Part shown: positions 37,864 to 55,960 of the stretch, piece after piece
Layout of the letters: each line of letters starts with the position of its first letter
How positions within the stretch are numbered: the first letter of the stretch is position 1
IMG/VR virus record: IMGVR_UViG_3300017754_004896
Reading direction: 5' to 3' (one strand)
Source: an uncultured virus (IMG/VR IMGVR_UViG_3300017754_004896)
Taxonomy: Duplodnaviria; Heunggongvirae; Uroviricota; Caudoviricetes
DNA: 64,000 bases
Made by a program: the position numbers and the translations under genes
The notes under the pieces: model-generated
The model's input: the letters and a program-made list of their open reading frames with translations, nothing else
Told to the model about the DNA's origin: nothing
Databases searched by the model: none

Positions 37864-38433
37864 ATGCTCGCAGCCCAAACAATCAAGAACCCCAGCTATC
37901 AGCTGTCTGGCTTCAGCGGGGCCCGAGATACGCTGAGAGCCATGGTGGAAGCGGCTCAGGGGGCCTACGGGGAGCGTAGTGCGCTGGTCCGTCGGGCTAC
38001 AGAGGAAGCCATCGGCAGGCTTGCGCCGAAGGCCTACGGGCCGGAGATCCTCGCGGTCGGCTACTGGGTGACGAAAAACGTCATCTACGTGAACGATCCT
38101 CTGCACGTCGAACTCCTGAAAACTCCCGAGAGGCTTGTTCGAGAGGTGCGGGAGCAGGGATTTGCCAGAGGGGATTGCGACGACATAGCTTGTTTGACAG
38201 GCACGATGGCATTGCAGCTCGGCCGGCAGGCACAGTTCGTTGTGGTGGGGTTTAGCGGACCCGGGGATTTTAGTCACGTATTCTGCCGGGTGAAACTACC
38301 CAAGACAGAGCAGTGGATAGTGATTGACCCTGTGGCAGGGTCTAATATCCGGTCCATGTTGGGGAGAGTGCGAACCTACCAGTTGTGGAGTTTGGACGAG
38401 TTGCCTAACACGGGTCCGTTGATGGAGAGATAA
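37864..38433 (+). CDS. Transglutaminase-like cysteine protease (candidate maturation protease)
   Basis: Cys-His-Asp triad motifs GDCDD, FSHVF, WIVIDP; first gene of the structural operon. Confidence 0.85.
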   Translation: MLAAQTIKNPSYQLSGFSGARDTLRAMVEAAQGAYGERSALVRRATEEAIGRLAPKAYGPEILAVGYWVTKNVIYVNDPLHVELLKTPERLVREVREQGFARGDCDDIACLTGTMALQLGRQAQFVVVGFSGPGDFSHVFCRVKLPKTEQWIVIDPVAGSNIRSMLGRVRTYQLWSLDELPNTGPLMER

Positions 38434-39216
38434 ATGCGAAAGACACTAGAAGCGGATTCCGCAGGCATTTTCCGGCGTCCTTCAAGTCCTGAGGTGGCGC
38501 CGACGGCGTTTTCCTTGGGCGCTACAATCGCCATTCCGACCATTGCCCCTAAGAAGGTCATCAGCCGGTATGGGTATGATTACGCGTCAGCTAATCTACC
38601 CTACGCTCCGGACCCTCAGGACGATTGTTCAGCAGGGGGAACTCGGCCTTGCAACTGCAAGTCTGCGGCGCTTTCGCAGCAGATAGTTGAGCAAGGGCTT
38701 TGCACTTCCTCGAAGCGGGTATCCATCAAGGGAGTAGGGGCAACGGGGCCTGGTGGGGAATCCCTGTTTCCGTGGCCAGGGAAGCAGTTCCGGACCATTC
38801 AGGACATTCAAGCCGCGAACCTCAATCCGTGCGAAGTATTGCTGTTGCCGACGTGCCCTGAGTGCGCGGCGGGCACTACGCTGACCCGGACGGGGGAGCA
38901 GGGGTACTGCGCCAAACCTGTAGTTATCGTGCAGCAGCACGGGGGACCGCAGCCGCCTTCGACGATATACGCCCCGCAGCCCCCCTCGACGATATACGCG
39001 TCGCAGCCTCCTTCGACGATATACATGCCGAAGCCGCCCGTGGTTACGACAGAGCCTCCGAAGAAGACAACGACGCCCGAGCCACCTAAGAAGGAAGAGG
39101 CGGCTTCCGGTGGCAGCTTCTTTACGGGGGCCTGGTGGATATTGTTGCTCGCCGCGGCGGGGGGCGGGTACTACCTGTACACCCAGAGCTCCAAGAAGCC
39201 AGCGGGGAAGAAGTGA
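38434..39216 (+). CDS. Cys/Pro-rich tail-anchored protein
   Basis: SLGAT, GVGAT; PPSTIY repeats; C-terminal TM + KK. Confidence 0.8.
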   Translation: MRKTLEADSAGIFRRPSSPEVAPTAFSLGATIAIPTIAPKKVISRYGYDYASANLPYAPDPQDDCSAGGTRPCNCKSAALSQQIVEQGLCTSSKRVSIKGVGATGPGGESLFPWPGKQFRTIQDIQAANLNPCEVLLLPTCPECAAGTTLTRTGEQGYCAKPVVIVQQHGGPQPPSTIYAPQPPSTIYASQPPSTIYMPKPPVVTTEPPKKTTTPEPPKKEEAASGGSFFTGAWWILLLAAAGGGYYLYTQSSKKPAGKK

Positions 39217-39575
39217 TGCAGCGCATTTACAACCCGGAATACTACCGGAGGCGCAGTGTGGGCGAGGACCTCCCTCGGTTGAGCGCGGTTGCGCCCGAGG
39301 CAGGGCCCATCACCACTACCACGTATGATAGCTCGGCGATGCCGGAAGCGGGCAAGGACGGCTGGGTGCTCATGACGCAGAAGGATGGCAGCCAGATGTT
39401 GGTACGGCCATTCGTGCCTGTGACGCCCGCGGTACCCGGAACGCCAGCGACACCCAGGACGCCAGCGGCACCTGGAACGCCAGCGGCATCCACAACTTCC
39501 AACACTATGCTTTACGCAGGTATCGCGGCGGCTGCCGCAATAGGGCTATACTTCCTCGTGAGGGCAAGCAAATGA
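39216..39575 (+). CDS. Tail-anchored protein
   Basis: MQRIYNPEYYRRRSVGE; C-terminal TM. Confidence 0.75.
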   Translation: MQRIYNPEYYRRRSVGEDLPRLSAVAPEAGPITTTTYDSSAMPEAGKDGWVLMTQKDGSQMLVRPFVPVTPAVPGTPATPRTPAAPGTPAASTTSNTMLYAGIAAAAAIGLYFLVRASK

Positions 39576-40288
39576 TTCGACAGTTCCCAAGTTATCCCCA
39601 AGGAATCCACCGGGAGGTTGGTATCAAGGTGGCGCCCTACGACCACGCGCCGCCAGCACTCCGCCCGGGCTCCATGAACCCGAAGTTTACCCGGTCGGTT
39701 CGAGGGCGGCAGCTGGCCGGTTCTCCGGATGGAATCGGGGACATAGACAGCATCAATTCGGAAGGAATCGACACCTACCCGAATGAGCTGGACGTGCTTG
39801 CCGCGGCCGATGATGTTGCCGGCAACGGGGTATTCGACCCCAACCTGTCTCACGGGAACGTGCATCCTGACGCGGGGGTCTTCGCGGAGCACCTGAGCCT
39901 GCCTGGATACGTGGCCCGAGACCGGTTCTACGCGCCGAGCGAGGTCCTGGACATCACGACAGGGCAGCCGGTGGAATACGTCCCTGGGGGCGCGGTGGCC
40001 TTCCAGGAGGGGCAGTTGGAAACGCTCCAGCAGCTGCAAGAGCTCTATGCCACCCCTCCGGAATCGGAGTGGAGGCCGCAGCAGGCAGCTCGAGTGGATA
40101 CGTGGATTCCCCAGGAGTTCTCGGAAGGCGTGAGCGGTTGCGGTTGCGCGCGGGGGACGGGGGCGGATCCGGTCACTCCTGCAGTTGCCCCCAAAGCGGA
40201 GGGTCTTCCTGTCTGGGCGTACGGGTTGATGGGCGTGGGCGCAGGGCTCGGGTTGATGTACCTCCTGAGCAAAGGCGGGAAGCGCTGA
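39572..40288 (+). CDS. Tail-anchored protein
   Basis: GIGD, SGCGC, GTGAD before the C-terminal TM. Confidence 0.8.
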   Translation: MIRQFPSYPQGIHREVGIKVAPYDHAPPALRPGSMNPKFTRSVRGRQLAGSPDGIGDIDSINSEGIDTYPNELDVLAAADDVAGNGVFDPNLSHGNVHPDAGVFAEHLSLPGYVARDRFYAPSEVLDITTGQPVEYVPGGAVAFQEGQLETLQQLQELYATPPESEWRPQQAARVDTWIPQEFSEGVSGCGCARGTGADPVTPAVAPKAEGLPVWAYGLMGVGAGLGLMYLLSKGGKR

Positions 40289-41370
40289 TGACTTACCGAA
40301 GCCAGTATGATGAGGCGCCGGAGGGGGTTCCCAACCCGTACCGGCCCAGGGTCCACAACTGGAAGGGCGGCCCGTACAATGAGGGGTCGTTGTATCACGG
40401 GCCTAACTATACCGAGCCCATGTTTGGATTGCCGCGAGTGGCAAACCCGCTCTGGCAGTATGGTCCCCCCGGGGTCGCAGGAATAGGAGAGACAGACATG
40501 TACAGAGACGTGAATACTCGGGGCGGCAGCTTTAGTCCTCGAGGGTATGGTGGAGGTATCTTCAATACCAACTCAGCAATTGGGGCGGACATTCTCCCCA
40601 TGCCCACGAGCACCGTCATTTGGGGCGTGCCAAACCCGGCATTTGGGCCAATCCAGGCCAAAATGAACAGTTTTCTTATCATGAGCGGTTTGCCTCAGAT
40701 AAGGACGGACGGGGTTCTGGACGAGAGCTATTGCGCGGCGGGAAGGTCGCTTCTGGCGCTTCCCTCCTTGGTGAAGCCCGGCACTACGAAGTTTGATGAC
40801 TTCGTTGCGACGCAGAACGAGGCGGAGAGGCCTATCGCGCTCGCCGCCGCGCTCCAGTGCGTTGCGAATGGGTATATCAAGCCTGATATGCTTCCGTGTG
40901 ATGTGCCAGGAAGCAAGAACCCGAAGTGCGGGATACCTGTTCCACCAGTGGTTCCGCCCGTGGTGCCCCCGAGCGGTACTTGTCCCCCTGGGCAGATTCC
41001 GAATCCGCTCGTTCCCGGCCAATGCTTGACGATTCCGGTTGTGCCGCCCGTGGTGCCTCCAGTGGTGCCTCCCGTGGTGCCTCCAGTGGTGCCGCCCGTG
41101 GTGCCTCCAGTGGTGCCGCCCGTGCTTCCTCCAAGCGGTACTTGTCCCCCCGGAAAAGTCTTGGATGCGGCAGGGAAGTGCGTGACAGCACCTACTGCGA
41201 AGTGTCCTGACGGGACGATTTTTGACGCGAGCACCGGGCTATGCAAGAAGCCAGCGCCCGCGGTGGAGAAGAAGGCCGAAACCAGTTACCTGCCGTGGAT
41301 TCTAGGAGGGGCTGCGGTTGTCGGGGTAGCTGCATTCGTCATCATGCAGAAGAAGGGCAAGGCTCGCTAA
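40288..41370 (+). CDS. Tail-anchored Pro-rich protein with (PPVV)n and Cys pairs
   Basis: TGATG coupling; AGIGE, AIGAD; C-terminal TM + KKGK. Confidence 0.8.
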   Translation: MTYRSQYDEAPEGVPNPYRPRVHNWKGGPYNEGSLYHGPNYTEPMFGLPRVANPLWQYGPPGVAGIGETDMYRDVNTRGGSFSPRGYGGGIFNTNSAIGADILPMPTSTVIWGVPNPAFGPIQAKMNSFLIMSGLPQIRTDGVLDESYCAAGRSLLALPSLVKPGTTKFDDFVATQNEAERPIALAAALQCVANGYIKPDMLPCDVPGSKNPKCGIPVPPVVPPVVPPSGTCPPGQIPNPLVPGQCLTIPVVPPVVPPVVPPVVPPVVPPVVPPVVPPVLPPSGTCPPGKVLDAAGKCVTAPTAKCPDGTIFDASTGLCKKPAPAVEKKAETSYLPWILGGAAVVGVAAFVIMQKKGKAR

Positions 41371-41870
41371 TGGCATACCGGATAATGGGGGTAAGAGGCC
41401 TAGGGGCCGCGGTTCCCTCGTTCAACTATGACACATACCTAGGTGTGCAGCAGGCGTTGAACTACCTTGGGGTTACGGACGATGCTGGTTCTCGTTTGGC
41501 AGAGGACGGCACCATGGGGTCCCGCACGAGACAGGCACTCGTCACGTTCCAGAAAATGTACATGATAACGGCGGACGGCAGCTACGGCCCCGAGAGCAAG
41601 GCGACGTTGCAGAAGGCTGTGGCGGAGAAGGCCAACCCGCTCCCCACGCCTCCAGACGTGAAGCCTCCTTTACCGGATGTAAAGCCACCTTCACCGGACG
41701 TGAAGCCCTCCACATGCCCTTCAGGTCAGGTTCTGGATTCTTCCGGGAAGTGTGTAGCTGGTCCCGTCAAACCAGCTGTTCCTGCACAGTCTAGCAACAC
41801 TATGCTGTACCTAGCAGGAGGAGCTGTTCTGTTGGGAGCAGTCGGGTATTTCATGTTCGTAAAGAAGTGA
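41370..41870 (+). CDS. Tail-anchored peptidoglycan-binding protein
   Basis: MAYRIMGVRGLGA; VQQALNYLG..EDGTMG..FQ..DGSYGP (PG_binding_1); C-terminal TM. Confidence 0.85.
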   Translation: MAYRIMGVRGLGAAVPSFNYDTYLGVQQALNYLGVTDDAGSRLAEDGTMGSRTRQALVTFQKMYMITADGSYGPESKATLQKAVAEKANPLPTPPDVKPPLPDVKPPSPDVKPSTCPSGQVLDSSGKCVAGPVKPAVPAQSSNTMLYLAGGAVLLGAVGYFMFVKK

Positions 41871-42385
41871 GAATAGACGTCATGTACAGAACCTACAACA
41901 GACCTCAACAGTACTTTGCCACCAATCGGATGTTTGGGCCGTACCTGCCCCCTTACCCCCTTCAAGGAGTAGGTGCAATCGGGCTAGGCACGGACTGCAG
42001 CGTCGCTAATACTAATCTGGCCGTATCCAAGTCGGCATACAATGCCGTGGCTACCGCTTGTAGTCAGGGAAGCGCGGACGATTGCATCAACCTGCCTTCG
42101 GTGAAGGCTACCATGGATGCAGCTCAGGCCGAGGTGGACACTTGCACGACACCGAAGAACCTGGACGTTCTTCCACCCCAGCCCAAGCCCCCAGAGCCGA
42201 TTCCTCCTCAGCCGATTCCTCCTCAGCCGATTCCTCCTCAGCCGATTCCTCCTCAGCCGAAGCCCCCAGAGCCGCCCAAGCCCCAGCCTGCAGCGGCGAG
42301 TGGCACTAACTGGATGCTTTGGATCGGAATCGCGGCAGCAGCCGGCGTGGTGGGGATTCTCGCTTTCGGAAAGAAGAAAGGCTAA
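41867..42385 (+). CDS. Tail-anchored protein with (PQPIP)n linker
   Basis: QGVGAIGLGT; C-terminal TM; alternative start ATG 41882 (MYRT). Confidence 0.8.
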   Translation: MRIDVMYRTYNRPQQYFATNRMFGPYLPPYPLQGVGAIGLGTDCSVANTNLAVSKSAYNAVATACSQGSADDCINLPSVKATMDAAQAEVDTCTTPKNLDVLPPQPKPPEPIPPQPIPPQPIPPQPIPPQPKPPEPPKPQPAAASGTNWMLWIGIAAAAGVVGILAFGKKKG

Positions 42386-43694: not shown

Positions 43695-44042
43695 ATGATA
43701 TATTCAAGGTGGAAGCCCTCCGGCGGGTATGATTACTTCCAGGTCAATCAGGAACTACCGATAGGAGACGACCCTCCACCTATGCATGTTCCCACTGCCG
43801 CAGGCAACATCGGAACGCCGGCCCAAGAATGTGGGTATCTGCTTCCTTCTGGGGCGGTCCAGATTGGTGCAGGTTCCGAGCCTCAAGGTCTGATCGCACC
43901 TACGTACTTCAAGTTTGCTCTCGGGGCTACCCCGGAAAAGCCAGAAGCATCGAAGGATTGGTCAACGAGCCCCCTTGTTTGGGGAGTCGCAGGCGCGGCA
44001 GCAGGGGGGTTAGTCGGATATATGTTGTGGGGGCGAAGATGA
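43695..44042 (+). CDS. Tail-anchored protein
   Basis: ALGAT before the C-terminal TM + RR. Confidence 0.8.
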   Translation: MIYSRWKPSGGYDYFQVNQELPIGDDPPPMHVPTAAGNIGTPAQECGYLLPSGAVQIGAGSEPQGLIAPTYFKFALGATPEKPEASKDWSTSPLVWGVAGAAAGGLVGYMLWGRR

Positions 44043-44613: not shown

Positions 44614-45969
44614 ATGACATATAGACACTACCAGATTAGAGGTCTAGGGGTCGAAGCTTCCGCCAGTCTTCCCCTTCCTGCGGGTCTGTCTCCCGGAGAC
44701 ATATCCGCGGCGGGCAGCAAAGCCTTTGACCCATCGAATGTATTCGGGGCCGCGCAGCAAGGGCTGTCCTCAATGGGAGGAGACCCTTCGACAATTATTC
44801 TTGGGTTTGTCAAGGACTTCAATAAGGCTGTTGATGCCGCACAGAGAGAAGAGTACGGGGTACTATTACAAGCGGCGGCCCCCGCAGTAGCGGACGGACT
44901 TTGCAGCATTCTAGGGATGCCCCCCGGACAATGCAGCGGTGCGGCAAGAACCATTGGAAATATCGCGTCGGACGTCATCGACGTTCTGAAGAGCATATTT
45001 GCTGGCACTGACTGGACCAAGTATCACTTGGACAGCTCCGTCAAGTGGCAACAGGCATCGGCAGTCGTGATAGGGCTGGCGAAGCTGGCAGCCATGAAGG
45101 AGAGAGCGGCTCTGGGGCTGCTTCTGAATATGTGGAAGGAAGGGGTGCGGCGGAAGTACTGCAGTGACAACTTCACGGCACTTGTGCCAACGGCAGAGAT
45201 TGAAGCCATTTTCCTGAAGCATTATCGAGCGAACTCGTACCCGGACAAGGGGAAGAGAGAACTGCTCCCAACAGCCTGGGGTGGTCTGGCAAGAGATTAT
45301 ACCCACTTTGCCCAGTCTAATCAGAGGTTCTGCGTTCCTGGTGACCCTCACAGGGTGGAGCTGAACGCGAGGTTCCCGGGAAGCGCGCCTCCTGGGTATA
45401 TGATACCTGACATCTGGATTGATAAGTCTACAATCTTAGACTTGAAAGACCCCTATGCCACGCTGCAGAAGTACGGCAACGTGCAAGGAGGTCATTGTAA
45501 TCCAGAAAACTGGAACCCAGCCGCAATGCAGCCGCGCCCGTTCGAGGGTGAGAGGTACTTCCTGTACCTGAGCTGCATATATTACGCTACGTGTGCCAGT
45601 CATTCTCGTTGGGCCAACTTCATCCCCTGGTACACGAGCGACTTGAAGTCTCGTATCACCGACGTTGATATCGCTCTAGGGGAGTCAATGCCGGAGCTAC
45701 CGGCGCTTGTGGATAGCTGGGCGAAGCGGATGAACCTTCGCACTTGCGCGAAGGAGGCAGAGTTCCAAGCGGCCTTGAGCAAAGAGCGAGAAGCCAAGCG
45801 GATAGCAGAGGGGAAGGCGGCGGATATTAGAATCGCTGCGGCAAAGGAAGTAGCGGCGAAGGAAGCAGCCGCGAAGGTGGCAGCCAGTTCCGGTTCTTGG
45901 ACTCCTTGGCTCATCGGTGGAGCAGCTGTGTTAGGGCTGAGCTACTATTTTTACGCAAGAAAGCGGTGA
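44614..45969 (+). CDS. Tail-anchored protein
   Basis: MTYRHYQIRGLGVE; C-terminal TM + RKR. Confidence 0.8.
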   Translation: MTYRHYQIRGLGVEASASLPLPAGLSPGDISAAGSKAFDPSNVFGAAQQGLSSMGGDPSTIILGFVKDFNKAVDAAQREEYGVLLQAAAPAVADGLCSILGMPPGQCSGAARTIGNIASDVIDVLKSIFAGTDWTKYHLDSSVKWQQASAVVIGLAKLAAMKERAALGLLLNMWKEGVRRKYCSDNFTALVPTAEIEAIFLKHYRANSYPDKGKRELLPTAWGGLARDYTHFAQSNQRFCVPGDPHRVELNARFPGSAPPGYMIPDIWIDKSTILDLKDPYATLQKYGNVQGGHCNPENWNPAAMQPRPFEGERYFLYLSCIYYATCASHSRWANFIPWYTSDLKSRITDVDIALGESMPELPALVDSWAKRMNLRTCAKEAEFQAALSKEREAKRIAEGKAADIRIAAAKEVAAKEAAAKVAASSGSWTPWLIGGAAVLGLSYYFYARKR

Positions 45970-45973: not shown

Positions 45974-46258
45974 ATGTACGTGAAAGCGAGAGTACTAGGC
46001 GCGACAGAGGGCCCTACCCCCGAGCAGCAGCGGGCAGCGGCTGCCGCGTCCGCGGCGGCGTCCGCGGCAGTGCATGCGGAGGCTGCAAAGCACTACGCGG
46101 CGGAGGCCGCAGCCGGCAAGGCACTAGTGTGGGAGGCAGCGCCTCCAGCGACTTCAACGGCCCCTGCGGCCAGCAGTTCGACAACTACCTGGCTCATTGT
46201 CGGCGGGCTGGTTGTCGCGGCGGGAGCTTTCATGTACTTCCAAAGCCAGAAACGGTAG
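45974..46258 (+). CDS. Ala-rich tail-anchored protein
   Basis: MYVKARVLGAT; C-terminal TM + KR. Confidence 0.75.
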   Translation: MYVKARVLGATEGPTPEQQRAAAAASAAASAAVHAEAAKHYAAEAAAGKALVWEAAPPATSTAPAASSSTTTWLIVGGLVVAAGAFMYFQSQKR

Positions 46259-46374: not shown

Positions 46375-48549
46375 ATGCCTCGGAAGAAAGTGTACGGAAT
46401 GGCTCGGAAAATCTCCGTGAAGGAGGCTTCCGGCTATGAACGATACTTGTCGAACCCTCTGGGAGTAACGGTCCTTGCGAAGGCGAACGGGATCGGGGCA
46501 AGTGTACGTACAACTTCGACGGGGAAGAGCAGAACTGCGCGGATGCGTCGAGCAGAGCAAGTACTTCGAGGTTCTAGTATGCGAAAAGTTCATAGCAGAG
46601 TGAAGGTACGTGGTGCGGCCATGCCGGCGCGGAGTGTGCGAACTGGGCGTTTCCTGAAGCGGAAGTCTGTTCGTAGAAACGAAGAGGGCGCGGCGGCTGC
46701 TGCGGCAGCACCTGCTGAGACATCCTCCGCACCGTCCCGTGCTGAGATTCGCGCTGCGGCTCTGGCAAAGGCGCGAGCTACAAGGGCTGCGAATATCCAA
46801 GCGAGGTATCCCGCGCAGGTCTCGAAAGTCGAAAAGAAGAGACATGTTTCGGTGCAGACAGCTTTCGGCCCCTATAAGCGGGTGAGGTTGACTGATCCAA
46901 AGACAGGAAAAGCTCGTCTTTCGTTCATGTATCGCGCCAAGGGGGGAAAGCTTCGGCACATTCCTAGGGAAGCTATTGAGAAGTTTTCTGTAGGGAAGGG
47001 CAAGAAGAAGCTTACCTCGGAAAAGATTATTGCGTTGCGGGAGGCAGAAAAAGCCCGCGTTACAAATCACGGCGGGGTGTTCGTCCCCAACAGGAGCAAG
47101 AAAATGCGAAGATTGAAGGTAACGAGGCGGCCCCGCCTGCGGATTCGCCGACGAGTTCACGAGAACTATGCTAAGGGCAGCCACCTAACTGCAGCTCAGA
47201 AGCAGAAGCACGTTCGTGGTGCAAAGAAGTACTGGAAGAAGCCCCTCAGCAAGGCTGCCAAGACCCATATTGCACATATCAAAGCCGCAAATGCGAAGCG
47301 GAAGAAGTCCAAGAAGTCCAAGAAGGGGACGCCCTCTGCGATGAAGCGTGCCATTCGTCGTGCGCATGAGGGGTCGAAGCAGAAGCCCGCAAAGCAAGCA
47401 AAGAAGGGCGCGCGAATGGTTGCGAATCGGAAGCGTGTTCGCAGGACCCGAAAGCATGTTGTGCGTCAGGTGCATGAGAACAAGCGCCGTCGCGTACATG
47501 CGAAGCATCGCAAGATGCATCGCAATGCCTACTTCGCGAACCTCCTCGAGGTGTTGACGAGTGGTGCGATTGTCAGCGCGGGCTTCATCACTCATCGCGT
47601 GATCGTGAACCTCGTCAATGACATGCTTCTGTGGGGTACCGACAAGGACGGAAAGCCCACCGGCATGCTTGCGAAGATGGCTGCGACCGCTCTTGAGAAG
47701 GCGACGACAGACGCGGACAAGAAGAAGGTGACTGACACCTATTACATGTATGCGAGGCTCTCGAAGCCCGTTTTGGGCCTCGTGACCTTGGCTGCCGGCG
47801 TGCCCCTCGCGGGTGCAGTGCTCCCGAAGTATCGCATCCAAATCGGAGGCGGTATGGTGGCGAGCATGTTGCAGCAGTGGATCGTCAGCGGAATCTCTGC
47901 TATGGCAAAGGAGCCTAACGATTCCATGGCTATCGCGGCCAGGGAACTCAGTGGCTACCCGGCGCTTGAGGGCCAGGCCAGCATCATGCCGCAGTACCAG
48001 TCCATCGGGGAGTACTTCGTACCCCAGGTGTCTGGCGTAGGCGAGTACTTCACCCCGGCGGTTTCGGGCTTGGGTGCTTACACCCAGGCGGCAGCCGGTT
48101 ATACCCAGGCAGCAGCCGGTTACACCCAGGCAGCAGCCGGTTACACCCAGGCGGCAGCCGGCGTGGGCGGTTACCGGCAGTCCACCGGAGAGTACTTTGC
48201 TCCGGCTGACCTGCAGGGAATCGGACAGTACGAGGGTGCCGGCGAGCAGGCGCTTCTCCCTTCGAGGGTCGCAACCTCGATTGATGACGGCATCCGGCCC
48301 GATGGTGACCTAGATCACATCCTGGACCTTGCGGAATCAGCTGCTGGCGTGCGTGGGACCGGCGAATACTTTGCCGCCTCGCAGACCAAGGGCGGGTTCA
48401 CCGAGAGCATCGTGCCCCAGCAGTCTCAGTGGATCCCACAGGGACCGCTCTGGGCGGGAACTCTCGAGGTCAAGGACACCCCCGGCACCAGTGAGTTGCC
48501 GGCCGGGATTCTCGCCACCGCTGGCGGGAACGGGGTCCTCTCGTCCTAA
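46375..48549 (+). CDS. Highly basic core-like (DNA-condensing) precursor with hydrophobic and repeat domains
   Basis: First ~385 aa Arg/Lys-rich; hydrophobic helices; GEYF and YTQAAAG repeats; acidic C-terminus. Confidence 0.8.
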   Translation: MPRKKVYGMARKISVKEASGYERYLSNPLGVTVLAKANGIGASVRTTSTGKSRTARMRRAEQVLRGSSMRKVHSRVKVRGAAMPARSVRTGRFLKRKSVRRNEEGAAAAAAAPAETSSAPSRAEIRAAALAKARATRAANIQARYPAQVSKVEKKRHVSVQTAFGPYKRVRLTDPKTGKARLSFMYRAKGGKLRHIPREAIEKFSVGKGKKKLTSEKIIALREAEKARVTNHGGVFVPNRSKKMRRLKVTRRPRLRIRRRVHENYAKGSHLTAAQKQKHVRGAKKYWKKPLSKAAKTHIAHIKAANAKRKKSKKSKKGTPSAMKRAIRRAHEGSKQKPAKQAKKGARMVANRKRVRRTRKHVVRQVHENKRRRVHAKHRKMHRNAYFANLLEVLTSGAIVSAGFITHRVIVNLVNDMLLWGTDKDGKPTGMLAKMAATALEKATTDADKKKVTDTYYMYARLSKPVLGLVTLAAGVPLAGAVLPKYRIQIGGGMVASMLQQWIVSGISAMAKEPNDSMAIAARELSGYPALEGQASIMPQYQSIGEYFVPQVSGVGEYFTPAVSGLGAYTQAAAGYTQAAAGYTQAAAGYTQAAAGVGGYRQSTGEYFAPADLQGIGQYEGAGEQALLPSRVATSIDDGIRPDGDLDHILDLAESAAGVRGTGEYFAASQTKGGFTESIVPQQSQWIPQGPLWAGTLEVKDTPGTSELPAGILATAGGNGVLSS
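48079..48162 (+). repeat. 21-bp coding repeat x4 (YTQAAAG)
   Basis: TAYACCCAGGCRGCAGCCGGY units. Confidence 0.9.
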
Positions 48550-48705: not shown

Positions 48706-49494
48706 ATGGCAAAACTAACTAACGTGCGTGAACGAGTACATCAGCCCTTCTACGATACGCTCGTTCGTACTGCAGGTCTTTCGAATCCGGCTGTTCAGGA
48801 CAGCACGAACCTGTTCAGCAATCAGAGCCGCGTGGGCGACCTGTCTGCTCTGACCAACCTCCCGAATGGAAGCACCCTTCCTTCGGACCAGAGCTATGTT
48901 GTTCTAGCTCTCCGTTGCCCCCTCTGGTTCCGCGCTCCGACTGTCCGTGGCACCCTGACCGGTGGCATTGGCATCCTGTCGGCCAACGGCGACTTCGAGA
49001 AAGCCGGCGCCACGGGCAACAACATCCAGACCTTCTTCGGGGCGAGCGGCGCCGGTTACGGCAATGCTCCCGGCGACTGGCACGACGTCTTCCGTCTGTA
49101 CATGCAGTCGGTCGAGCAGCTGCACTGGTCGTTCGGAACGGGACAGAAGGAGAGCATCTCCAACCTTCCGAGCTCTTACTTCCCATCGGCCAACGGCCTC
49201 TGGGGAGCGCTCGGCGGTGTTAGCGATACCATCCTCCTGAACAACGGCAACCCCACCAACGCCGCTTTGCTGCGTCTGGGTCGTGCCATCCTGCTTCCCC
49301 CGCGCCAGAACGTGCTCTGCACCGCGCGCATTATCGCGCTCCCCGGTGCCACGGCTTCGATCAACCCAGGCAACGTTGAGTCCGTCAACGGCCGCAACTA
49401 CCTCAGCCTGAAGGACAACCTGAATGCCGTTGACGGCGTTCAGAAGTACATCGGCTGGTACATGGACGGTCTCTGGGCCCGCGACGTGCAGTAA
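48706..49494 (+). CDS. Candidate major capsid protein (jelly-roll inferred)
   Basis: AGGAG SD, strongly C-ending codons, flanking hairpins; QPFYDT..TNLPNGSTLP..YVV beta pattern; the CDS is secure, the fold is inferred. Confidence 0.6.
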   Translation: MAKLTNVRERVHQPFYDTLVRTAGLSNPAVQDSTNLFSNQSRVGDLSALTNLPNGSTLPSDQSYVVLALRCPLWFRAPTVRGTLTGGIGILSANGDFEKAGATGNNIQTFFGASGAGYGNAPGDWHDVFRLYMQSVEQLHWSFGTGQKESISNLPSSYFPSANGLWGALGGVSDTILLNNGNPTNAALLRLGRAILLPPRQNVLCTARIIALPGATASINPGNVESVNGRNYLSLKDNLNAVDGVQKYIGWYMDGLWARDVQ

Positions 49495-49622: not shown

Positions 49623-50594
49623 ATGGCAAACATTCAAGAAATCGTTCAGAGCCTGCAGCAGCAGGCGAACTTTGCTGCGGCGAAGGCCCGAGAGGCCCAG
49701 GCATTGGCGGAACGCGCGGACGCGCGTAACGCCCAGCTGGCGCAGCAGCTCGACCGGCAGACGCGGTCGATGCAAGACCTTTCAGACTCCTTGGCTCGTG
49801 TACAGGCGCAGGGGTCGTCCAGTGTGACGCCAGACCGCATTCAGTACATTGAGCAGGTGCCTGGTAGACGCGTCCCGTTTGACCTCGTTGTTCGCATTGC
49901 CGTGGGGGCGAGCGTCACCAGCGAGCAGCAGCAATCGACGACGATCAGCATGGACGGGCCCTTCGTGGCGGTGCGCCGGTATGCGGCGTTTCTGTCGCAG
50001 CTGACCGCATCGTACCTGAATCCTTCAACCCAGGTGACTAGTGCATTCCTCGGGCGGTCGTTTGGCCGTTGGCGGCCCATCCACTCAATGTGGGACCTGA
50101 ACGATGCTTCCGCGGGCGTAATGCAGTCAGTGACGGGCGGTCCAATCCCTGGTGCAGGACAGCCTATTTACGCGAGCCCCTCTAACATGTCGTCCTTCAG
50201 GACCATGGAATTTGACGGGCTAATCAAGTTCATGAATCAGGGTTCCGGGTTCATGCGGCAGACCGATGCAATTCCGAGTGCTTGGTACTCGGAAGCCATC
50301 AACAGCCCATTCGACCTGCCGGCGCTCGACTTCTTCGAGAAGGGGGAGACGCTGCAGTGGTCGGTCACTCCGACGCACCCGAACAACCCTGATTACGGCA
50401 ACATGAGTGCTTACGGCGCCAGCGGGTACTACCCATTCTTGGCGAGTCAGTACGACGTTCACGAGGGCATCAACGACAAGGAGATTCTCACGAATACTAC
50501 AGACCCAATCACGAGACTCCCGAACGGGATTCTCTACATTGGATTCTCTGGGTACCGTATCATTCAGCCCCCCGGCGTGGTTCGTCCAGGCTGA
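49623..50594 (+). CDS. Candidate second capsid protein (N-terminal coiled coil + jelly-roll-like domain)
   Basis: GAGGA SD; ISMDGPFVAV..FEKGETLQWSV..LYIGFSGYRI. Confidence 0.55.
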   Translation: MANIQEIVQSLQQQANFAAAKAREAQALAERADARNAQLAQQLDRQTRSMQDLSDSLARVQAQGSSSVTPDRIQYIEQVPGRRVPFDLVVRIAVGASVTSEQQQSTTISMDGPFVAVRRYAAFLSQLTASYLNPSTQVTSAFLGRSFGRWRPIHSMWDLNDASAGVMQSVTGGPIPGAGQPIYASPSNMSSFRTMEFDGLIKFMNQGSGFMRQTDAIPSAWYSEAINSPFDLPALDFFEKGETLQWSVTPTHPNNPDYGNMSAYGASGYYPFLASQYDVHEGINDKEILTNTTDPITRLPNGILYIGFSGYRIIQPPGVVRPG

Positions 50595-50620: not shown

Positions 50621-51400
50621 ATGACGACATCGAATTGCCTCGACACGCAGCGCGGGTTCGACGGAACGCGAGTGATGGCTGCCGGCGGAAACACCGCCGC
50701 GCAGCTGCTCCACCCTACTACGGCACCTTTCGAGCGTCTGTGGAGGAAGCTACCGTCCCCAGGGATGTTTGACCCGAGTGTCAGTCCTGCGAACCCGTAC
50801 TCAATTACGTTGGGCGCCTATCGGGTGCCCGACAATGAGATGCTCGCAATTTTCGATTTGTCGGGGGGGGTCTATAGGTGTAGCGGGAACGTCCCCGGGG
50901 ACACGGAGCCGGTGGCCCCGAGGGCTCTTTCTTCGTTGATGGGGTTTTCGCTGACAATAGATGGGCGAACCCAGGGCAACATCCAATACCAGTTGGAGCC
51001 CGGCCCTATCAATGTTCAATCCAACCCCGCATTTTCTGGTGGGGTTGGATTGAATTACAACGTCCAAACCTTGTATGGAACGCTTTCTGCACCATTCCAG
51101 CAAGCGAACATTGGGGAATTCCAGCAGGCGGCCTCGGATAGTTACGCGAACGCTTCGGGCCCAGGTACCAGTACTCAGCCGCAGAGAGACGGCAGGTACG
51201 GCGCCCGGGATATACCATTCACGTTATACGCTGATGCGGGGCAAACAGTTGCGGTAAAGGCTATTGTGTGGCGCCCCATGCCAGTGCCTATCGCCTTCTT
51301 AGAGTACACCATCCAAGGGTTGCTGATTCCTCAGAATTCGTTGAAAGAGATTCTAAACGCCTGGAAGTATCCACAGCGTAATGGAGAAAGCATCCGCTAA
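50621..51400 (+). CDS. Candidate penton/minor capsid protein
   Basis: AGGAG SD; LGAYRVPDNEMLAI..GQTVAV..YTIQGLL beta pattern. Confidence 0.5.
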   Translation: MTTSNCLDTQRGFDGTRVMAAGGNTAAQLLHPTTAPFERLWRKLPSPGMFDPSVSPANPYSITLGAYRVPDNEMLAIFDLSGGVYRCSGNVPGDTEPVAPRALSSLMGFSLTIDGRTQGNIQYQLEPGPINVQSNPAFSGGVGLNYNVQTLYGTLSAPFQQANIGEFQQAASDSYANASGPGTSTQPQRDGRYGARDIPFTLYADAGQTVAVKAIVWRPMPVPIAFLEYTIQGLLIPQNSLKEILNAWKYPQRNGESIR

Positions 51401-51943: not shown

Positions 51944-52753
51944 ATGCCGTTTCAACGCTACCAGGCTCCCGACCTGCTCTCGCAGGATGCGCTCCCCCGA
52001 GTTATCCCCGCGCCCCCAGGGAGGGATGTGGCTCCGTTCATCAAGGAGCTTGCGCAGGAGATCCCAGCGGAATTGCAGAAGCTGGGGACGTTGACTCCTT
52101 GGGCTGTGCGGGAGGGCGATATTCGCTGGGCTCAGGTGGTCCAACCGTCGTCCGTCAATATTGAGGTGTACGCGCTTTCGGACGCGAAGATCCAGGAGCT
52201 GTACCGAGAGCACTACATGCTCGAGCTGCCCTATGTGGCAGCCGTGTTCGAGTACCCTCCGACGATAGGAGAGCTCCAGCAAGCGTTCGAGAGCACCCTG
52301 TATGACCCTGTGGAGGTGACTGCTGTGTACTCCCAGGACGACAGAGCGGCCGTCCCTACGCCCGTGTACATGGTTTGGCTTCACAAGGAGGAGGAAGTCA
52401 CAGGCTCGAGGAAGCATCGGGGGAGTGTCGAGCAAGCCGCGCTCCGGCTGAAGGGTCGGCTGGTGTACGCGCAGCAGGTGCCGGCGGCGCACACGACGAA
52501 GCGTGGGGCTCCTTCGGCTTCGTATGCGGAGGCCGGCAGCATGCATCGAGTAGCGCGGCAGGTGAAGGCTTTGCCGGAGTCGTTGCCGGCAGCTTCGACC
52601 TTGCCCGCGTACCAGCCCGTTGCCGTTGGTGCGGATCCGCCAGCAGTCCCCGCAACACCTCCAACTACGGAGAAGTCCTCGATGACTCCCTACTACTTGT
52701 TGGGAGGGGGTTTGGCGGCAGGGATACTCCTTTATATGGTGGTGCGCAAATGA
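51944..52753 (+). CDS. Tail-anchored protein
   Basis: AVGAD before the C-terminal TM + RK. Confidence 0.8.
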   Translation: MPFQRYQAPDLLSQDALPRVIPAPPGRDVAPFIKELAQEIPAELQKLGTLTPWAVREGDIRWAQVVQPSSVNIEVYALSDAKIQELYREHYMLELPYVAAVFEYPPTIGELQQAFESTLYDPVEVTAVYSQDDRAAVPTPVYMVWLHKEEEVTGSRKHRGSVEQAALRLKGRLVYAQQVPAAHTTKRGAPSASYAEAGSMHRVARQVKALPESLPAASTLPAYQPVAVGADPPAVPATPPTTEKSSMTPYYLLGGGLAAGILLYMVVRK

Positions 52754-52983
52754 AGCTGAATCTTGAGCCGGATTACCTGAGCCTGGCGCAGCACGCATTT
52801 CCCCAGCTGCAAGCAACGGCAAACCAGTATGGGGGCCCTGTGGGCATCCTCGGAAAAGTTGTTGGACTCGGGGGAGACGAAATCAAGCAAGGAGTCCCTT
52901 GGTGGGGCTGGATGAGCATAGGACTAGTCGGTGGTGTGGTGCTTGGGTACGCACTCCGTGATAAGATAAGCAAGGTGGTGTAA
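52750..52983 (+). CDS. Small membrane protein
   Basis: ATGA coupling; VPWWGW + TM. Confidence 0.75.
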   Translation: MKLNLEPDYLSLAQHAFPQLQATANQYGGPVGILGKVVGLGGDEIKQGVPWWGWMSIGLVGGVVLGYALRDKISKVV

Positions 52984-52985: not shown

Positions 52986-54104
52986 ATGGCATTTTTCAGC
53001 AACCAGGGAGTGCCTTTCGCTCAGGCGGTAGGTTCCGTTGAATCGACAAGCAGGCCTCTAGGCCCTTTGACTGCATACCGGGACGGTTCGTTGGGGTCGG
53101 ATTGCCCTCCTTGTAACTGTGCGTCTGGCGGCGGTGGCGGTGACAGAGACGGCATGCAAGAGGAGGTAGATTCTCGGTTTGCTTTTGATACGCCTAAAGC
53201 GTGGCATGACGGGATTTTTCAGGCCCACGAAGGCGTGCCCGGGATGCTTCACGCGCATTCTTCCGGAACGGTAGGAGCCCCATCGGAAGCGCTCGGCCTT
53301 CCCCTTTACTTGAACGGGAGAGAGGTCACGATGCCTCTGACCATTCACCATGGCACGATGGGGCTAGGGGCCGACACGTCTGCGGAAGATTTGACGCTAG
53401 ATGTGAGTAAAGCTCCAGGATTGGCTGACCTCAAGAATTTGATCAGATTCTGGGTCGCGTCTCCGCTAGGTAAGAGCGTTGGACTAGATGCCAGCACTAT
53501 TCCCGCTGATTGGGTCAATACACCTTGGAGCATCACTGATGGTATGTTGATTCAGACCATTCTGAATCGAAAGGCTGTCCCTTCTCCAGAGCAGCTGAAA
53601 ATCAGCTCGTATGACACCCTGGTGGCGCCGAAGTTGACTGTGGGAGACCAGTTCTACCCATTGCCCCAGTTGATTTTCTACCTAGCCACTTCTCTTCGAG
53701 GAGCCGCTCCTGCTGCCTGGGAAGGGTATGCGAAGTCTTGGATCAGCCCATTTTTCAAGAACCTGATACCATTCTGGACAGAGGCGTTTCAGCAAATGTC
53801 TAAGATGGTGTCGGCGGGCTCGACTCAGGATGCGCAAATTATGGCGGCGGGTTTGCGAGTATATCCGGAGTCCCTGACCATCACTTGGCCAGACGGCACC
53901 GTGACCCGGGGTTCTGGAGTACTCAAGCAAGGGGCCACTACCGCGAAGGAAGCAGTGATTCCTCCCAGTGTGGTACCAGGCACCCCTGAGGCGAAGAAAG
54001 CCGCCGAGGCCGCGCCGACGACCAACTACATATTGTACGGGGGGCTCGCGGCGTTGGCTGTCGCTGGGCTCTACTTGACGATGAAGGGGCCGTCCCGAAG
54101 GTAA
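52986..54104 (+). CDS. Tail-anchored protein
   Basis: SLGSD, TVGA, MGLGAD; C-terminal TM + basic tail. Confidence 0.8.
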   Translation: MAFFSNQGVPFAQAVGSVESTSRPLGPLTAYRDGSLGSDCPPCNCASGGGGGDRDGMQEEVDSRFAFDTPKAWHDGIFQAHEGVPGMLHAHSSGTVGAPSEALGLPLYLNGREVTMPLTIHHGTMGLGADTSAEDLTLDVSKAPGLADLKNLIRFWVASPLGKSVGLDASTIPADWVNTPWSITDGMLIQTILNRKAVPSPEQLKISSYDTLVAPKLTVGDQFYPLPQLIFYLATSLRGAAPAAWEGYAKSWISPFFKNLIPFWTEAFQQMSKMVSAGSTQDAQIMAAGLRVYPESLTITWPDGTVTRGSGVLKQGATTAKEAVIPPSVVPGTPEAKKAAEAAPTTNYILYGGLAALAVAGLYLTMKGPSRR

Positions 54105-54106
54105 GC

Positions 54107-54691
54107 ATGAACTGGTGGCAGGATATCTTCGGGGCCTTGGGCGGCAATGTGCAGGCGATGCAGGATTCTGCCGCGCCTGCACAGGTGCGCGCCCAGGTAA
54201 TGAAGTGGCTGGGTTACTTCTCAGCTAACTCTGTCATGGCCGCGGGACCGAATCTTCTCGACCCGCAGTCCTGTGACTTTTGCTCGGAGTTAGGGTTGCT
54301 GGACTGTCAGGTTTGCGGCGCCAGGGTGTGCCTGGCGCATGCATTCGTGAGCCATCAAGCCCACGCTATTTGCCATGATTGTGTCCGTGGAGTTACTGGC
54401 ACCAAGGAAGAGCAGCGGAGAGCTCGAGCAGCTCAGCATCGGCAGCAGAAGGCAGAGCGGGCGACACGTAGGCCGGATGCCGACGAGCAGTTGGTGGCGG
54501 CGTTGAAGGAACTCGGGCTGGAAAGAGGGGCCGCTTGGGAGGACGTGAAAGCGGCCCATCGGTATCTAGTGCTCAAACATCATCCAGACAGAGCTAAGAG
54601 TCAGTCCGCCAAGGAAAAGGCGAACGAGAAGCTAACGAAGATCAATGCGGCTTACGCGCTGCTGAGGTCACATTACGAAAGGGCCGCATGA
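54107..54691 (+). CDS. Zn-finger protein with C-terminal J domain
   Basis: CDFC..CQVC..C..H..CHDC; LGLE..VKAAHR..HHPDR..INAAY. Confidence 0.85.
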   Translation: MNWWQDIFGALGGNVQAMQDSAAPAQVRAQVMKWLGYFSANSVMAAGPNLLDPQSCDFCSELGLLDCQVCGARVCLAHAFVSHQAHAICHDCVRGVTGTKEEQRRARAAQHRQQKAERATRRPDADEQLVAALKELGLERGAAWEDVKAAHRYLVLKHHPDRAKSQSAKEKANEKLTKINAAYALLRSHYERAA

Positions 54692-55098: not shown

Positions 55099-55105
55099 GG
55101 TAAAA

Positions 55106-55657
55106 ATGTCCTATCCTTTGATGCCCAGTGAGTCATACGCACAGTCAATAGGCCCGTATGCAACTCCTGGTTGGCAGTTTGCGCCAGTTCCAGGATGGGG
55201 CATTGACCCAGACTTTTCGGCCCGCTCTAGTGTTGTAGCGGTGGGGAGCGTGCCTCCTCGTGGAGATGGTATGTTGACTACAATGAATGACCTAGTTCTT
55301 CCTCGGTACTCCCCGGTGCGGGCACAGGTCCCTACCTCAGACGCATTCGAGCACCTGACGCTGCAGCATGGGGGTGTGGAGCAGACCTCCACGCTGCCCA
55401 TGAGCATGCAGATCAGCATGGCGGCGAAGAAGCCGGCGGCCCCCTACCAGCCGATTGCTCCGGCTTCTACCGCGCCCCGGTACGGGACGCGCACGTGGGA
55501 GTTGAAGCAGGGCGGATACTACCCCGTGGGTGCAGATCCGCAGCCCGTGCCTCCGGCGCAGCCGGCAGCACAGTACGGCATCGGGTACGTACTGCTCGCA
55601 GGGGCCGGTGGATTGCTCGTAGGTATGGGGCTGACTTACGCTTGGATGAGCAAGTAG
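55106..55657 (+). CDS. Tail-anchored protein
   Basis: GAGG SD; PVGAD before the C-terminal TM. Confidence 0.8.
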   Translation: MSYPLMPSESYAQSIGPYATPGWQFAPVPGWGIDPDFSARSSVVAVGSVPPRGDGMLTTMNDLVLPRYSPVRAQVPTSDAFEHLTLQHGGVEQTSTLPMSMQISMAAKKPAAPYQPIAPASTAPRYGTRTWELKQGGYYPVGADPQPVPPAQPAAQYGIGYVLLAGAGGLLVGMGLTYAWMSK

Positions 55658-55663
55658 GCCGCC

Positions 55664-55960
55664 ATGTATCGCGCGAGCTATCGGAGCCTGGGGGCCAGTA
55701 ACGGCGATAAAGGGGCCGAGCTTCTCGTAGAGACGGCGCCCCCCGTTATCACGGCGTGCCCCCAGTGCTCAAGGCTGGAGGCGGGGAGCTGTGTCGTCTG
55801 CAAGCCCGGCGAGCAGCATCCGTCCTGTCAGGGCTGCAACGGGGGGGTACCGGAGAAGACGCCGTGGTATCAAACCCAGTTTGCGGCGACGGTAGGTGCG
55901 ATGGTAGTGGCTTCGGTGCTGACCGCTATCATCGTGGAGAGAATCACGCGAAAACGTTGA
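55664..55960 (+). CDS. Small Cys-rich tail-anchored protein
   Basis: MYRASYRSLGAS; three CxxC; C-terminal TM + RKR. Confidence 0.75.
   Translation: MYRASYRSLGASNGDKGAELLVETAPPVITACPQCSRLEAGSCVVCKPGEQHPSCQGCNGGVPEKTPWYQTQFAATVGAMVVASVLTAIIVERITRKR

Follow-up and report, generated by a model that had tools for sequence, protein, structure and literature searches.

Tagged tail-anchored proteins and a transglutaminase-like enzyme that may read their tag in the particle module of an uncultivated virus

Results

The 64,000-nucleotide stretch of DNA analysed here, referred to throughout as the window, comes from an uncultured virus (IMG/VR record IMGVR_UViG_3300017754_004896) and consists of two divergent gene blocks, one on the minus strand (1113-30762) and one on the plus strand (35178-59160). 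The plus-strand block, for which Pfam and PHROG matches are nearly nil, encodes an 838-amino-acid (aa) coiled-coil protein, a 189-aa transglutaminase-like protein with a Cys-His-Asp triad, about 16 small tail-anchored proteins, i.e. proteins ending in one hydrophobic helix and a short Lys/Arg tail, a 724-aa core protein, three conserved proteins of 259-323 aa, a J-domain protein and two glycosyltransferases. Several of the tail-anchored proteins begin with a short leader that ends in a glycine motif, and it is this N-terminal tag, together with the enzyme that may read it, that is the subject of the present analysis. An earlier note on the window had taken a looser motif, x-[LVIT]-G-[AED], for a glycine-directed processing code cut by the transglutaminase-like protein; the observation is partly confirmed, in that a sharper, positional form of the motif is real, and the interpretation is partly supported.

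The block at 35178-59160 serves a large, uncultivated bacterial virus as its particle-building module. Sixteen tail-anchored open reading frames (ORFs) lie within 33-60 kb of the window, with 4-20 in most related loci, and the presence of many small membrane proteins among the capsid genes is a feature of internal-membrane icosahedral phages. Because the same module encodes about 16 tail-anchored membrane proteins alongside candidate jelly-roll capsid proteins, an internal membrane like that of Salisaeta phage SSIP-1 is probable.

A search with the 262-aa candidate capsid protein (48706..49494, plus strand) returned 28 IMG/VR loci, whose contigs measure 9-182 kb and in many cases fall within the 110-180 kb range of the relatives, some having terminal repeats, and seven contigs binned in metagenome-assembled genomes (MAGs), giving 35 related loci in total. 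The MAG labels, which are bin assignments only, are Planctomycetota, Pirellulales, Phycisphaeraceae, Pseudomonadota, Pseudomonadales, Deltaproteobacteria and Acidobacteriota. One relative, G001, is an IMG/VR contig of 111,584 bp with direct terminal repeats, rated 100% complete, whose enzyme is 59% identical to that of the window; it holds counterparts of 19 of the 29 plus-strand window proteins, in kept order, and of only five of the 22 minus-strand ones. A more distant clade, including G003 and G004, has a capsid candidate about 33% identical to that of the window clade. The record behind the window is probably a fragment, since the contig that carries the enzyme sequence is no longer than 71.8 kb. 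A literature search found no description of this virus group, of such a tag or of a transglutaminase-like enzyme in such phages, and the virus lineage itself appears undescribed.

N-terminal leaders in the window

The N-terminal strings quoted in the earlier note are all present, each in the leader of a tail-anchored protein on the plus strand. RRRSVGE lies within the leader MQRIYNPEYYRRRSVGE (39216..39266) of a 119-aa protein, MAYRIMGVRGLGA within the leader MAYRIMGVRGLGAA (41370..41411) of a 166-aa protein, and QGVGA within the leader MYRTYNRPQQYF...PLQGVGAI (41882..41980) of a 167-aa protein. The variant MTYRHYQIRGLGV belongs to the leader MTYRHYQIRGLGVE (44614..44655) of a 451-aa protein, whose positional counterpart in locus L023 starts MSYQFFRGLGDD, while MYVKARVLGAT (45974..46006) opens a 94-aa protein and MYRASYRSLGAS (55664..55699) a 98-aa Cys-rich one. 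In orthologues of the 55664 protein the leader reads MMYRSLGS, MYALSGF, ..YPSLHG and ..YPTATG. Two further tail-anchored proteins have related starts: a 115-aa protein with the N-terminus MIYSRWKPSGGYDYFQ (43695..43742), conserved in an alignment of 15 homologues, and a 360-aa protein with the M-x-Y-R start MTYRSQYDEAPEG (40288..40326), in which the glycine core is delayed to residues 62-70 (GVAGIGETD, 40471-40497). In G001 the latter gene is split in two at this AGIGE site. The 41370 leader directly precedes a peptidoglycan-binding domain (PG_binding_1, E 2e-7, residues 26-76); the leader before this domain is 11 aa long in the window and 43 aa long in G001, where it ends PAPGVGD, so that leader length differs between orthologues while the site is kept.

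The position of the motif, rather than its frequency, is what stands out. Across all 51 window proteins the pattern [RK].[LIVM]G[AV] occurs seven times, and six of the seven start within the first 12 residues, five in four plus-strand proteins and one in m19282, whose start is uncertain. Four plus-strand proteins have the pattern within their first 13 residues, compared with 0.022 expected for 29 N-termini, and none of 20,000 shuffles gave four or more. Furthermore, M-x?-Y starts are found in 8/29 plus-strand and 0/22 minus-strand proteins (expected fraction 0.067). The tagged window proteins start at an ATG directly after the previous stop codon.

The earlier note had proposed enrichment of its loose motif in structural over replication ORFs as a check, and no such enrichment was found (0.58 vs 0.54 per 100 aa). 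The 29 plus-strand proteins hold 45 occurrences against 33.0 expected from per-protein shuffles (Poisson p 0.027), and the 22 minus-strand replication and fibre proteins hold 48 against 49.4. The background level of the loose motif, the composition of the proteins (9.5% Gly, 12.4% Ala) and the automatic setting of starts in the relatives would all fit an explanation in which there is no shared function at all, only Gly-rich composition, paralogy among small proteins or wrong starts. This is most improbable: the window statistics rest on ATG starts that directly follow a stop, the tag is carried by mutually dissimilar proteins (292 tail-anchored ORFs in 119 families) and it recurs in two clades whose capsid candidates share only about 33% identity.

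Other kinds of signal were set aside by inspection of the sequences. A signal at the RNA or DNA level is not indicated, as the codons differ save for CTAGG in three genes; a Tat signal would have a hydrophobic region after its arginines, a lipobox a Cys after the site and a prepilin-type leader a hydrophobic helix there, none of which is present. Sortase, exosortase and GlyGly-CTERM signals were likewise rejected, since the site lies 10-19 residues from the anchor and does not adjoin it.

The CTAGG encodes the Leu-Gly of the site in the three leaders concerned (41394-41408, AGAGGCCTAGGGGCC; 44638-44652, AGAGGTCTAGGGGTC; 45989-46000, AGAGTACTAGGCGCG), and CTA is an unusual Leu codon at the G+C content of this DNA. 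The only minus-strand protein with an N-terminal motif, m19282 (19282-19938), matches PHROG 2693, of unknown function, and would start MGNRGRSVGAS if its TTG start is right.

Conservation of the leader among related viruses

For the family survey, 737 proteins were called in 30 related stretches, 242 of them tail-anchored, after eight loci had been dropped (three duplicates of G001, G003 and G004, one identical to a kept locus and four whose capsid matches are nearly identical among themselves). M-x?-Y starts were found on 87 proteins, of which 68 are tail-anchored, i.e. 28% of the tail-anchored proteins vs 3.8% of the rest. The dipeptide [LMIV]G falls at residues 4-32 in 70 of these 87; the richness of the proteins in Gly makes for less clean controls, which stand at 104/174 for other tail-anchored proteins, 168/476 for non-anchored proteins and 46/83 for residues 41-69 of the M-x?-Y proteins themselves.

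A logo of 67 leaders aligned on the glycine, whose median position is residue 10, shows Arg, Ser or Tyr at P4, Gly at P3 (27 leaders) and, at P2, Leu (38), Val (13), Met (10) or Ile (6). P1' is most often Ala (20), with Gln (6), Glu (5) and Asp (4), and Pro is found at P3' (15) and P5' (17). The resulting family consensus is M-[ST]-Y-(basic)n-G-[LMVI]-G-[A/Q/E/D]-x-P, with Ala as a further option at the second residue, as in MTYREMRGLGAAE, MSYQFFRGLGDD, MSYARSIRGLGAE, MYGLGQEV and MSYRGVGAGPGP. In G003, a complete genome of the distant clade, 13 of the 18 ORFs between the enzyme and core genes are tagged as counted by eye (e.g. MSYRRSPVRRRRFGLGAGD, MSYHQRASGRRRHLSGLGQS); here the tag takes the form M-S-Y or M-M-R, arginines, then G-[LM]-G-Q, and the pattern is even stronger than in the window clade. 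Taken from the predicted proteins, then, a leader ending G-φ-G-[A/Q/E/D] is family-wide and kept across about 30 related stretches, and it stands on proteins without detectable mutual similarity.

The tails that follow the anchors also differ between the clades, being Lys-rich in the window clade and extremely Arg-rich in the distant one (G003 and G004 stretches L028, L030, L048-L050), where many open with x-N-R-R (VARNRRRRRW, VSANRGRRRRR, PVTSNRRRRARRRR).

Sites before the anchors and in the core protein

The earlier note had also placed the motif just before the membrane anchor, and most of the strings it listed there are indeed present: GTGAD at residue 196 of the 39572 protein, ALGAT at residue 76 of the 43695 protein, AVGAD at residue 228 of the 51944 protein, PVGAD at residue 141 of the 55106 protein, and SGVGE. 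Two others were misplaced, AIGAD (40288 protein, residue 98) and GLGAD (52986 protein, residue 127) being more than 200 residues from the anchor. In the form [LIVMT]GA[DT]P the motif occurs four times, always on the plus strand and each time 16-22 residues before a C-terminal anchor: RGTGADP (40151..40171, 39572 gene), 18 residues before its anchor and preceded by GCGC; FALGATP (43914..43934, 43695 gene); VAVGADP (52619..52639, 51944 gene); and YPVGADP (55520..55540, 55106 gene). A related VVGLGGDEI (52858..52884, plus strand) lies in a 77-aa protein (52750-52983) whose relatives have GLGADE or GLGAAE 11 residues before the anchor, and the SGVGE (18090..18104, minus strand) is at residue 290 of a 347-aa tail-anchored protein (17928-18971), about 35 residues before its anchor, a G001 homologue of which exists.

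Conservation of these sites, which the earlier note had named as a further check, is uneven. Besides the N-terminal leader, the pre-anchor site of the 39572 protein is kept ([TIV]G[AQ] in 5/5 aligned orthologues, PVGAM in G001), as are that of the 55106 protein ([LIV]G[AD].P in 5/6 aligned sequences) and two internal sites of the 40288 family. The 43695 site is poorly kept in 15 homologues, and a site like that of the 51944 protein, at 35 residues or fewer from the anchor, is found in 1/12 members.

Across the family, [LIVMT]G[AED] peaks 10-19 residues ahead of the anchor, at 1.83 per 100 positions, compared with 0.64-0.83 in the bins at 0-9, 20-29, 30-39 and 40-49 residues, with a smaller bump of 1.36 at 50-59. 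The peak is made up by 44 of the 242 tail-anchored proteins, which by reading fall into roughly ten unrelated groups, among them the family of the 77-aa protein. The strict form [LIVMT]GA.P within 40 residues of the anchor is largely window-specific, with 6/242 tail-anchored proteins having it, three of them in the window.

Two side features accompany the anchors. Their starts share [S/T]-x-N-[T/W/Y]-[M/I]-L-[Y/W]-x-G-G (39500-39575, 41800-41870, 42310-42385 and 54030-54104), as in TSNTMLYAG, SSNTMLYLAGG, GTNWMLWIG, TTNYILYGG and TPYYLLGGG, and SSIP-1 gp34 (L051:20600-20681) has NLPYLLLGGG. A cysteine pair, G-C-G-C or GGCGC, often comes directly before the pre-anchor site, in the window (40130-40171), in G001 (L001:12530-12865) and in L010, L013, L015, L027 and L037 (GCGCARGTGAD, GCGCAQGTGAN, VGGCGCSGAMGD, GGCGCGMGAD), and the same module ends different proteins in different genomes.

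The motif recurs in the 724-aa core protein (46375..48549, plus strand), as the earlier note had said. This protein has a very basic N-terminal half, then hydrophobic helices, then C-terminal repeats, and on reading the sequence six sites of the form [S/G]-[IVLT]-G-[E/A/Q]-Y-[F/T/E] can be seen at residues 541-668 (47986-48378). G-φ-G-E-Y-F is present in 2-6 copies in each of 18 core homologues among the matches listed, and the same repeats are found in six tail-anchored proteins of relatives, in four of them within the first 30 residues.

Tandem copies suggest multivalent binding, and they lend some weight to an alternative in which the tag serves for docking only and stays uncut, with the leaders, pre-anchor sites and core repeats all binding one repeated site. 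The partner would be the inner capsomer face or the 838-aa coiled-coil protein, membrane and genome would be tied to the shell, and the job of the enzyme would be unrelated. Conservation of the extreme N-terminus and of the aromatic E-Y-F after the glycine is what a binding peptide would show, and proteins with a C-terminal helix and no signal peptide would be expected to expose their N-termini towards the shell. Docking alone is the main rival to cleavage and a serious one, though judged somewhat less probable, as it fits less well with the Pro-rich, apparently flexible sequence after the site, with leaders ranging from 3 to about 40 residues, with the splitting of a G001 gene at a site and with the presence of a Cys-His-Asp enzyme alongside the tag in both clades. 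Docking followed by cleavage would be possible too; in that respect the alternative overlaps with the proposal of a cleaved tag set out below, and the two would be reconciled.

The transglutaminase-like enzyme

The candidate for a leader-trimming protease is the 189-aa enzyme encoded at 37864..38433 on the plus strand. Its predicted catalytic residues, Cys105 (in GDCDD, 38176-38178), His138 (in SHVF, 38275-38277) and Asp155 (in DPVAG, 38326-38328), are invariant across 54 aligned homologues; in total it has 109 homologues of 40-80% identity, all metagenomic. Pfam PF01841 (Transglut_core) matches the window enzyme at E 1.1e-4 with 22.9 bits, against a gathering cut-off of 23, and matches 49 of the 54 aligned members at E <= 1 (best 1.7e-10). 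The enzyme is kept in distant relatives of 150-160 kb; it was found in three of four distant records searched, the fourth being a 45% complete fragment, and is a core gene. It does not open the operon, contrary to the earlier note, since the 838-aa gene (35178-37694) precedes it in both the window and G001.

The AF2 model of the enzyme is of high confidence (pLDDT 93.2, pTM 0.89), and its best Foldseek matches are PNGase (2f4o, E 7e-5), two putative cysteine proteases (3isr, 1.7e-4; 3kd4, 3.7e-4) and LapG (4fgp, 1.3e-3), all with TM 0.47-0.53 on the query. Further matches are PeiW (E 8e-3), PeiP (E 1.4e-2), TG2 and arylamine N-acetyltransferases; every fold match is of the transglutaminase-like kind, with no adenain among those listed, and a PDB sequence-profile search with the enzyme gave no match. 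Together with the conserved triad, the model bears out the earlier description of a Cys-His-Asp enzyme of transglutaminase-like fold at this position, and places the enzyme in the transglutaminase-like superfamily, with a papain-like alpha+beta core shared with PNGase, TG2 and LapG. This settles the fold; as to the reaction, protease, amidase, cell-wall peptidase and transglutaminase matches all score alike, at TM 0.4-0.5.

The presence of PeiW and PeiP among these matches brings in a different role, that of a particle-borne cell-wall peptidase for entry or exit, acting as those enzymes do on pseudomurein, with the glycine motif an unrelated docking tag or a feature of paralogous small proteins. 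SSIP-1 gp34, the homologue discussed below, is a membrane-anchored virion protein, and neighbouring tail-anchored proteins bear peptidoglycan-binding domains, both of which would suit such a role. It is nonetheless unlikely: the window already has M23 peptidase-like and PG-binding lysin-like proteins, and G001 an amidase; none of the 54 members, which together matched 15 Pfam families at E <= 1, matched an NlpC/P60 or CHAP model; and the tag would be left unexplained.

The same fold is found in TG2 and in bacterial transglutaminases, and the distant clade mostly has Gln after G-L-G (GLGQ, GMGQ, HLGQ), which raises the further option that the enzyme is a true transglutaminase cross-linking particle proteins, the motif marking the glutamine donor. 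That seems very unlikely, as the window clade mostly has Ala, Glu or Asp at this position (A 20/67 against Q 6/67 in the pooled logo) and as the tails in the Gln-rich clade are Arg-rich and Lys-poor, so that acceptors for a cross-link would be scarce.

The surroundings of the catalytic Cys are GDCDD in the window clade and [I/A/C]DCDE in the distant clade; the two clades thus differ both around the Cys and in the residue after the site, a single contrast that is no evidence by itself. Some longer database forms of the enzyme (P0059, P0063, P0082) have motif-bearing N-terminal extensions (GGGLGALQAP, SFRGLGLID, RALGLAESLGEPP), which could be a propeptide or over-long gene calls.

Discussion

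The occurrence of one tag on a dozen unrelated proteins argues for a common reading partner. It is proposed that the tag is a shared assembly signal on otherwise unrelated membrane proteins, and that its most likely reader is the soluble, conserved enzyme with the Cys-His-Asp triad, whose gene stands close to the start of the block. The enzyme would cut at or beside the second glycine of G-φ-G during particle maturation, and cutting would remove leaders and free domains from their anchor or from the shell. With no signal peptide and a single C-terminal helix, the N-terminal domains would stay on the cytoplasmic face of the membrane, which established models of PRD1- or SSIP-1-type particles place on the side of the shell; the basic tails would point towards the DNA.

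Cleavage, as opposed to binding, is favoured by the flexible-looking proline-rich sequence after the site, the variable length of the leader, the position of the site at module borders and the splitting of the G001 gene at a site. There is also a precedent in the fold: LapG is described as cutting LapA between Ala108 and Ala109, giving the new N-terminus AGPSAAG (PMC3032545), so by analogy a transglutaminase-like fold is able to cut between small residues.

Several results pull the other way. Structural proteins show no excess of the loose motif over replication proteins, and several sites are not kept: site 23 of the 43695 family is GDD or NDD, its site 76 is poorly kept, and the AVGAD of the 51944 family appears in 1/12 members. 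The start codons on which the family survey depends were set by a simple automatic rule. The extreme N-terminus (M-S/T-Y) and the E-Y-F behind the glycine are conserved, which would be expected of a binding motif no less than of a cleavage site, and the G-φ-G-E-Y-F repeats fit multivalent docking at least as well as they fit a cleavage site. The fold matches do not separate a protease from an amidase, a cell-wall peptidase such as PeiW or PeiP, or a cross-linking transglutaminase, and the enzyme may just as well be a cell-wall peptidase of the virion or a cross-linker. Finally, the total of G[LIVM]G[AEDQSLG] in SSIP-1 is what chance would give (7 vs 7.04 in shuffles), and only the positions of its sites are suggestive.

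On balance, that the enzyme is a protease, that it reads the tag and where it would cut are drawn from the tag, its position, its conservation and the fold and triad of the enzyme, all of which were observed, and from analogy. Cleavage of the tag by the enzyme during particle maturation is accordingly put forward as a serious possibility that falls somewhat short of an even chance. The fuller scenario is more tentative again. In it, an undescribed lineage of 110-180 kb internal-membrane viruses, distantly linked to SSIP-1, would mature by means of a transglutaminase-fold cysteine protease that reads M-S/T-Y-(basic)n-G-φ-G|A/Q/E/D, strips leaders from at least a dozen membrane proteins, releases domains from their anchors and fragments the C-terminal arm of the core protein, in a manner convergent with the adenain-type proteases.

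To our knowledge, no maturation protease or common sorting tag is known for membrane-containing phages. If the proposal is true, an N-terminal tag on unrelated proteins would explain how proteins are selected for the internal membrane and how that membrane is joined to the shell or freed from it. Should the tag indeed be cut by the enzyme, two different protease folds would have given rise to glycine-directed maturation, one in bacterial and one in eukaryotic viruses. The idea is directly testable because SSIP-1, which has an enzyme homologue and similar sites, is cultivated. Furthermore, the virus family is of interest in itself, with a complete genome of 111.6 kb (G001) in which no terminase, portal, HK97-type capsid protein or packaging ATPase was recognised.

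Relation to known systems

SSIP-1 is described in the accounts cited here as icosahedral with an internal membrane, its 100 nm capsid having T=49 and two types of capsid protein, possibly single jelly rolls (PMC6260650, PMC6356626, PMC4958249). Its gp34, annotated in the SSIP-1 record as a structural (virion) protein, is the only match of the window enzyme among 50,697 phage records (tblastn E 2e-6; blastp E 2.5e-11, 28% identity). The layout of gp34 is an enzyme core, ARGMGE, a linker and the anchor NLPYLLLGGGILLGGGYLIAQSSK, which is of the same style as the window anchors; SSIP-1 shares with the window the possession of many tail-anchored proteins, and G-[LM]-G falls at residues 17-34 of gp36, gp37, gp52 and gp53. 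Given the chance total noted above, these sites are a lead and not support. The differences are considerable: SSIP-1 is circular and only 43.8 kb, gp34 carries its own anchor whereas the window enzyme is soluble, no similarity was found between the capsid proteins of the two (profile comparison of the three window candidates with gp37, gp41, gp44-48 and gp53 gave probabilities below 3% throughout), and SSIP-1 has an annotated packaging ATPase whereas none was recognised in the scans of the window or G001.

The likeness to LapG is at the level of fold (4fgp and 4fgq, E about 1e-3, TM 0.48) and of a Cys-dependent cut between small residues. LapG is periplasmic and controlled by LapD and c-di-GMP; the window enzyme is only 12-15% identical in the fold match, no LapG-family Pfam model was matched at E <= 1 by the 54 members, and by sequence the enzyme is not of the LapG family.

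As regards the tag, the capsid targeting sequence of T4 is a short N-terminal leader on unrelated internal proteins that is used for loading and is then cut off at a simple site by gp21, the prohead protease. The virus of the window likewise has one shared leader at the N-termini of particle proteins that are otherwise unrelated. However, T4 is a tailed phage without a membrane and gp21, a serine protease with a different fold, cuts after Glu, whereas the tagged proteins of the window are membrane-anchored and the candidate enzyme is Cys-His-Asp and transglutaminase-like.

The adenovirus protease, poxvirus I7 and ASFV pS273R are packaged cysteine proteases that trim core, membrane-active and cement proteins at Gly sites near their ends. 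These enzymes of the adenain/Ulp1-like clan serve jelly-roll or membrane-containing particles of viruses with eukaryotic hosts, and their catalytic His comes before the Cys. The window enzyme has the order Cys105, His138, Asp155 on a transglutaminase-like fold; because both fold and catalytic order differ, membership of the adenain type fails, and any likeness would therefore be one of convergence.

Double-glycine leaders are likewise short and N-terminal, end in Gly-Gly, Gly-Ala or Gly-Ser and are removed by a C39 Cys-His peptidase domain. They differ in directing export via an ABC transporter fused to the peptidase, and neither a C39 match (E <= 1, 54 members) nor such a transporter (window Pfam results) was found here.

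Other genes of the locus

The conserved genes of the co-oriented block begin, upstream of the enzyme, with that of the 838-aa protein (35178..37694, plus strand), which has a long coiled-coil region, belongs to no Pfam or PHROG family and is 27% identical to the product of a syntenic 872-aa gene of G001. A long gene, known by position alone, lies upstream of the enzyme in the G003 and G004 stretches too.

The three conserved proteins of 259-323 aa are labelled capsid candidates only, because the Foldseek and VIA scores are weak. The 262-aa protein (48706..49494), with a homologue in 34/35 loci, has a beta-sandwich, jelly-roll-like AF2 model (pLDDT 69), for which viral jelly-roll capsid proteins dominate the Foldseek list, albeit with weak scores (best E 0.026, all E > 0.01). 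VIA scores are similarly weak (best Z 6.6; SPV1 capsid 5.7, PRD1 P5 5.2, HCIV-1 4.8), the capsid proteins of SPV1, HCIV-1 and phiCjT23 spanning 4.8-5.7. The second candidate, a capsid or scaffold protein of 323 aa (49623..50594, plus strand; 31/35 loci), begins with about 70 residues of coiled coil, and the third, of 259 aa (50621..51400, plus strand), has a homologue in 22/35 loci. PDB profile searches gave noise only for the 48706 family and coiled coils only for the 49623 family, the phage isolate collection held no match for the 48706 protein, and the ESM Atlas returned only unnamed viral clusters, and no structure, for the 49623 protein. A PHROG search with 49 window proteins left the enzyme, the small proteins and the capsid candidates without a match.

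No terminase, portal, HK97-type or other known capsid protein or packaging ATPase was recognised in a Pfam scan of 116 of the 137 G001 ORFs. Walker A motifs in the window occur in the helicase, the primase-helicase and one unannotated plus-strand ORF inside the minus-strand nuclease gene, and an FtsK/HerA-type packaging ATPase was recognised neither by this search nor in the G001 scan, a divergent ATPase being possible.

A J-domain (DnaJ) protein with a Cys/His-rich N-terminal half is encoded at 54107..54691 on the plus strand (Pfam DnaJ E 3e-10; 17/35 loci), and it might bring host DnaK to the tail-anchored proteins.

The minus-strand block encodes a family A DNA polymerase, a helicase, a PD-(D/E)XK nuclease, a DUF5906 primase-helicase, an M23-like peptidase, three fibre-like proteins of 825-1116 aa and a lysin-like protein bearing a peptidoglycan-binding domain. 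Of these, the polymerase, helicase, nuclease and primase (21022-29623, minus strand) are without counterpart in G001, in which the Pfam scan found RecT, YqaJ, a 1369-aa integrase-domain protein, ThyX, methylases and an amidase; the particle module is thus common to the window and G001 while the replication module has been exchanged. A tRNA-Asn (GTT) gene at 50-123 on the plus strand, beside virus-like genes, could be virus-encoded or mark an integration site.

Of the fibre-like proteins, one (7697-10996, minus strand) has beta-helix and lectin domains and shares its first ~30 residues, MAGT..ITQVKAS.ICQSV.STGVGES, with another (11027-14377, minus strand). These two larger proteins thus have a G-V-G-E core at residues 23-26, and the third (4925-7402, minus strand) has the related start MSGSTAVTQATPSYECQVRGTGVRR.

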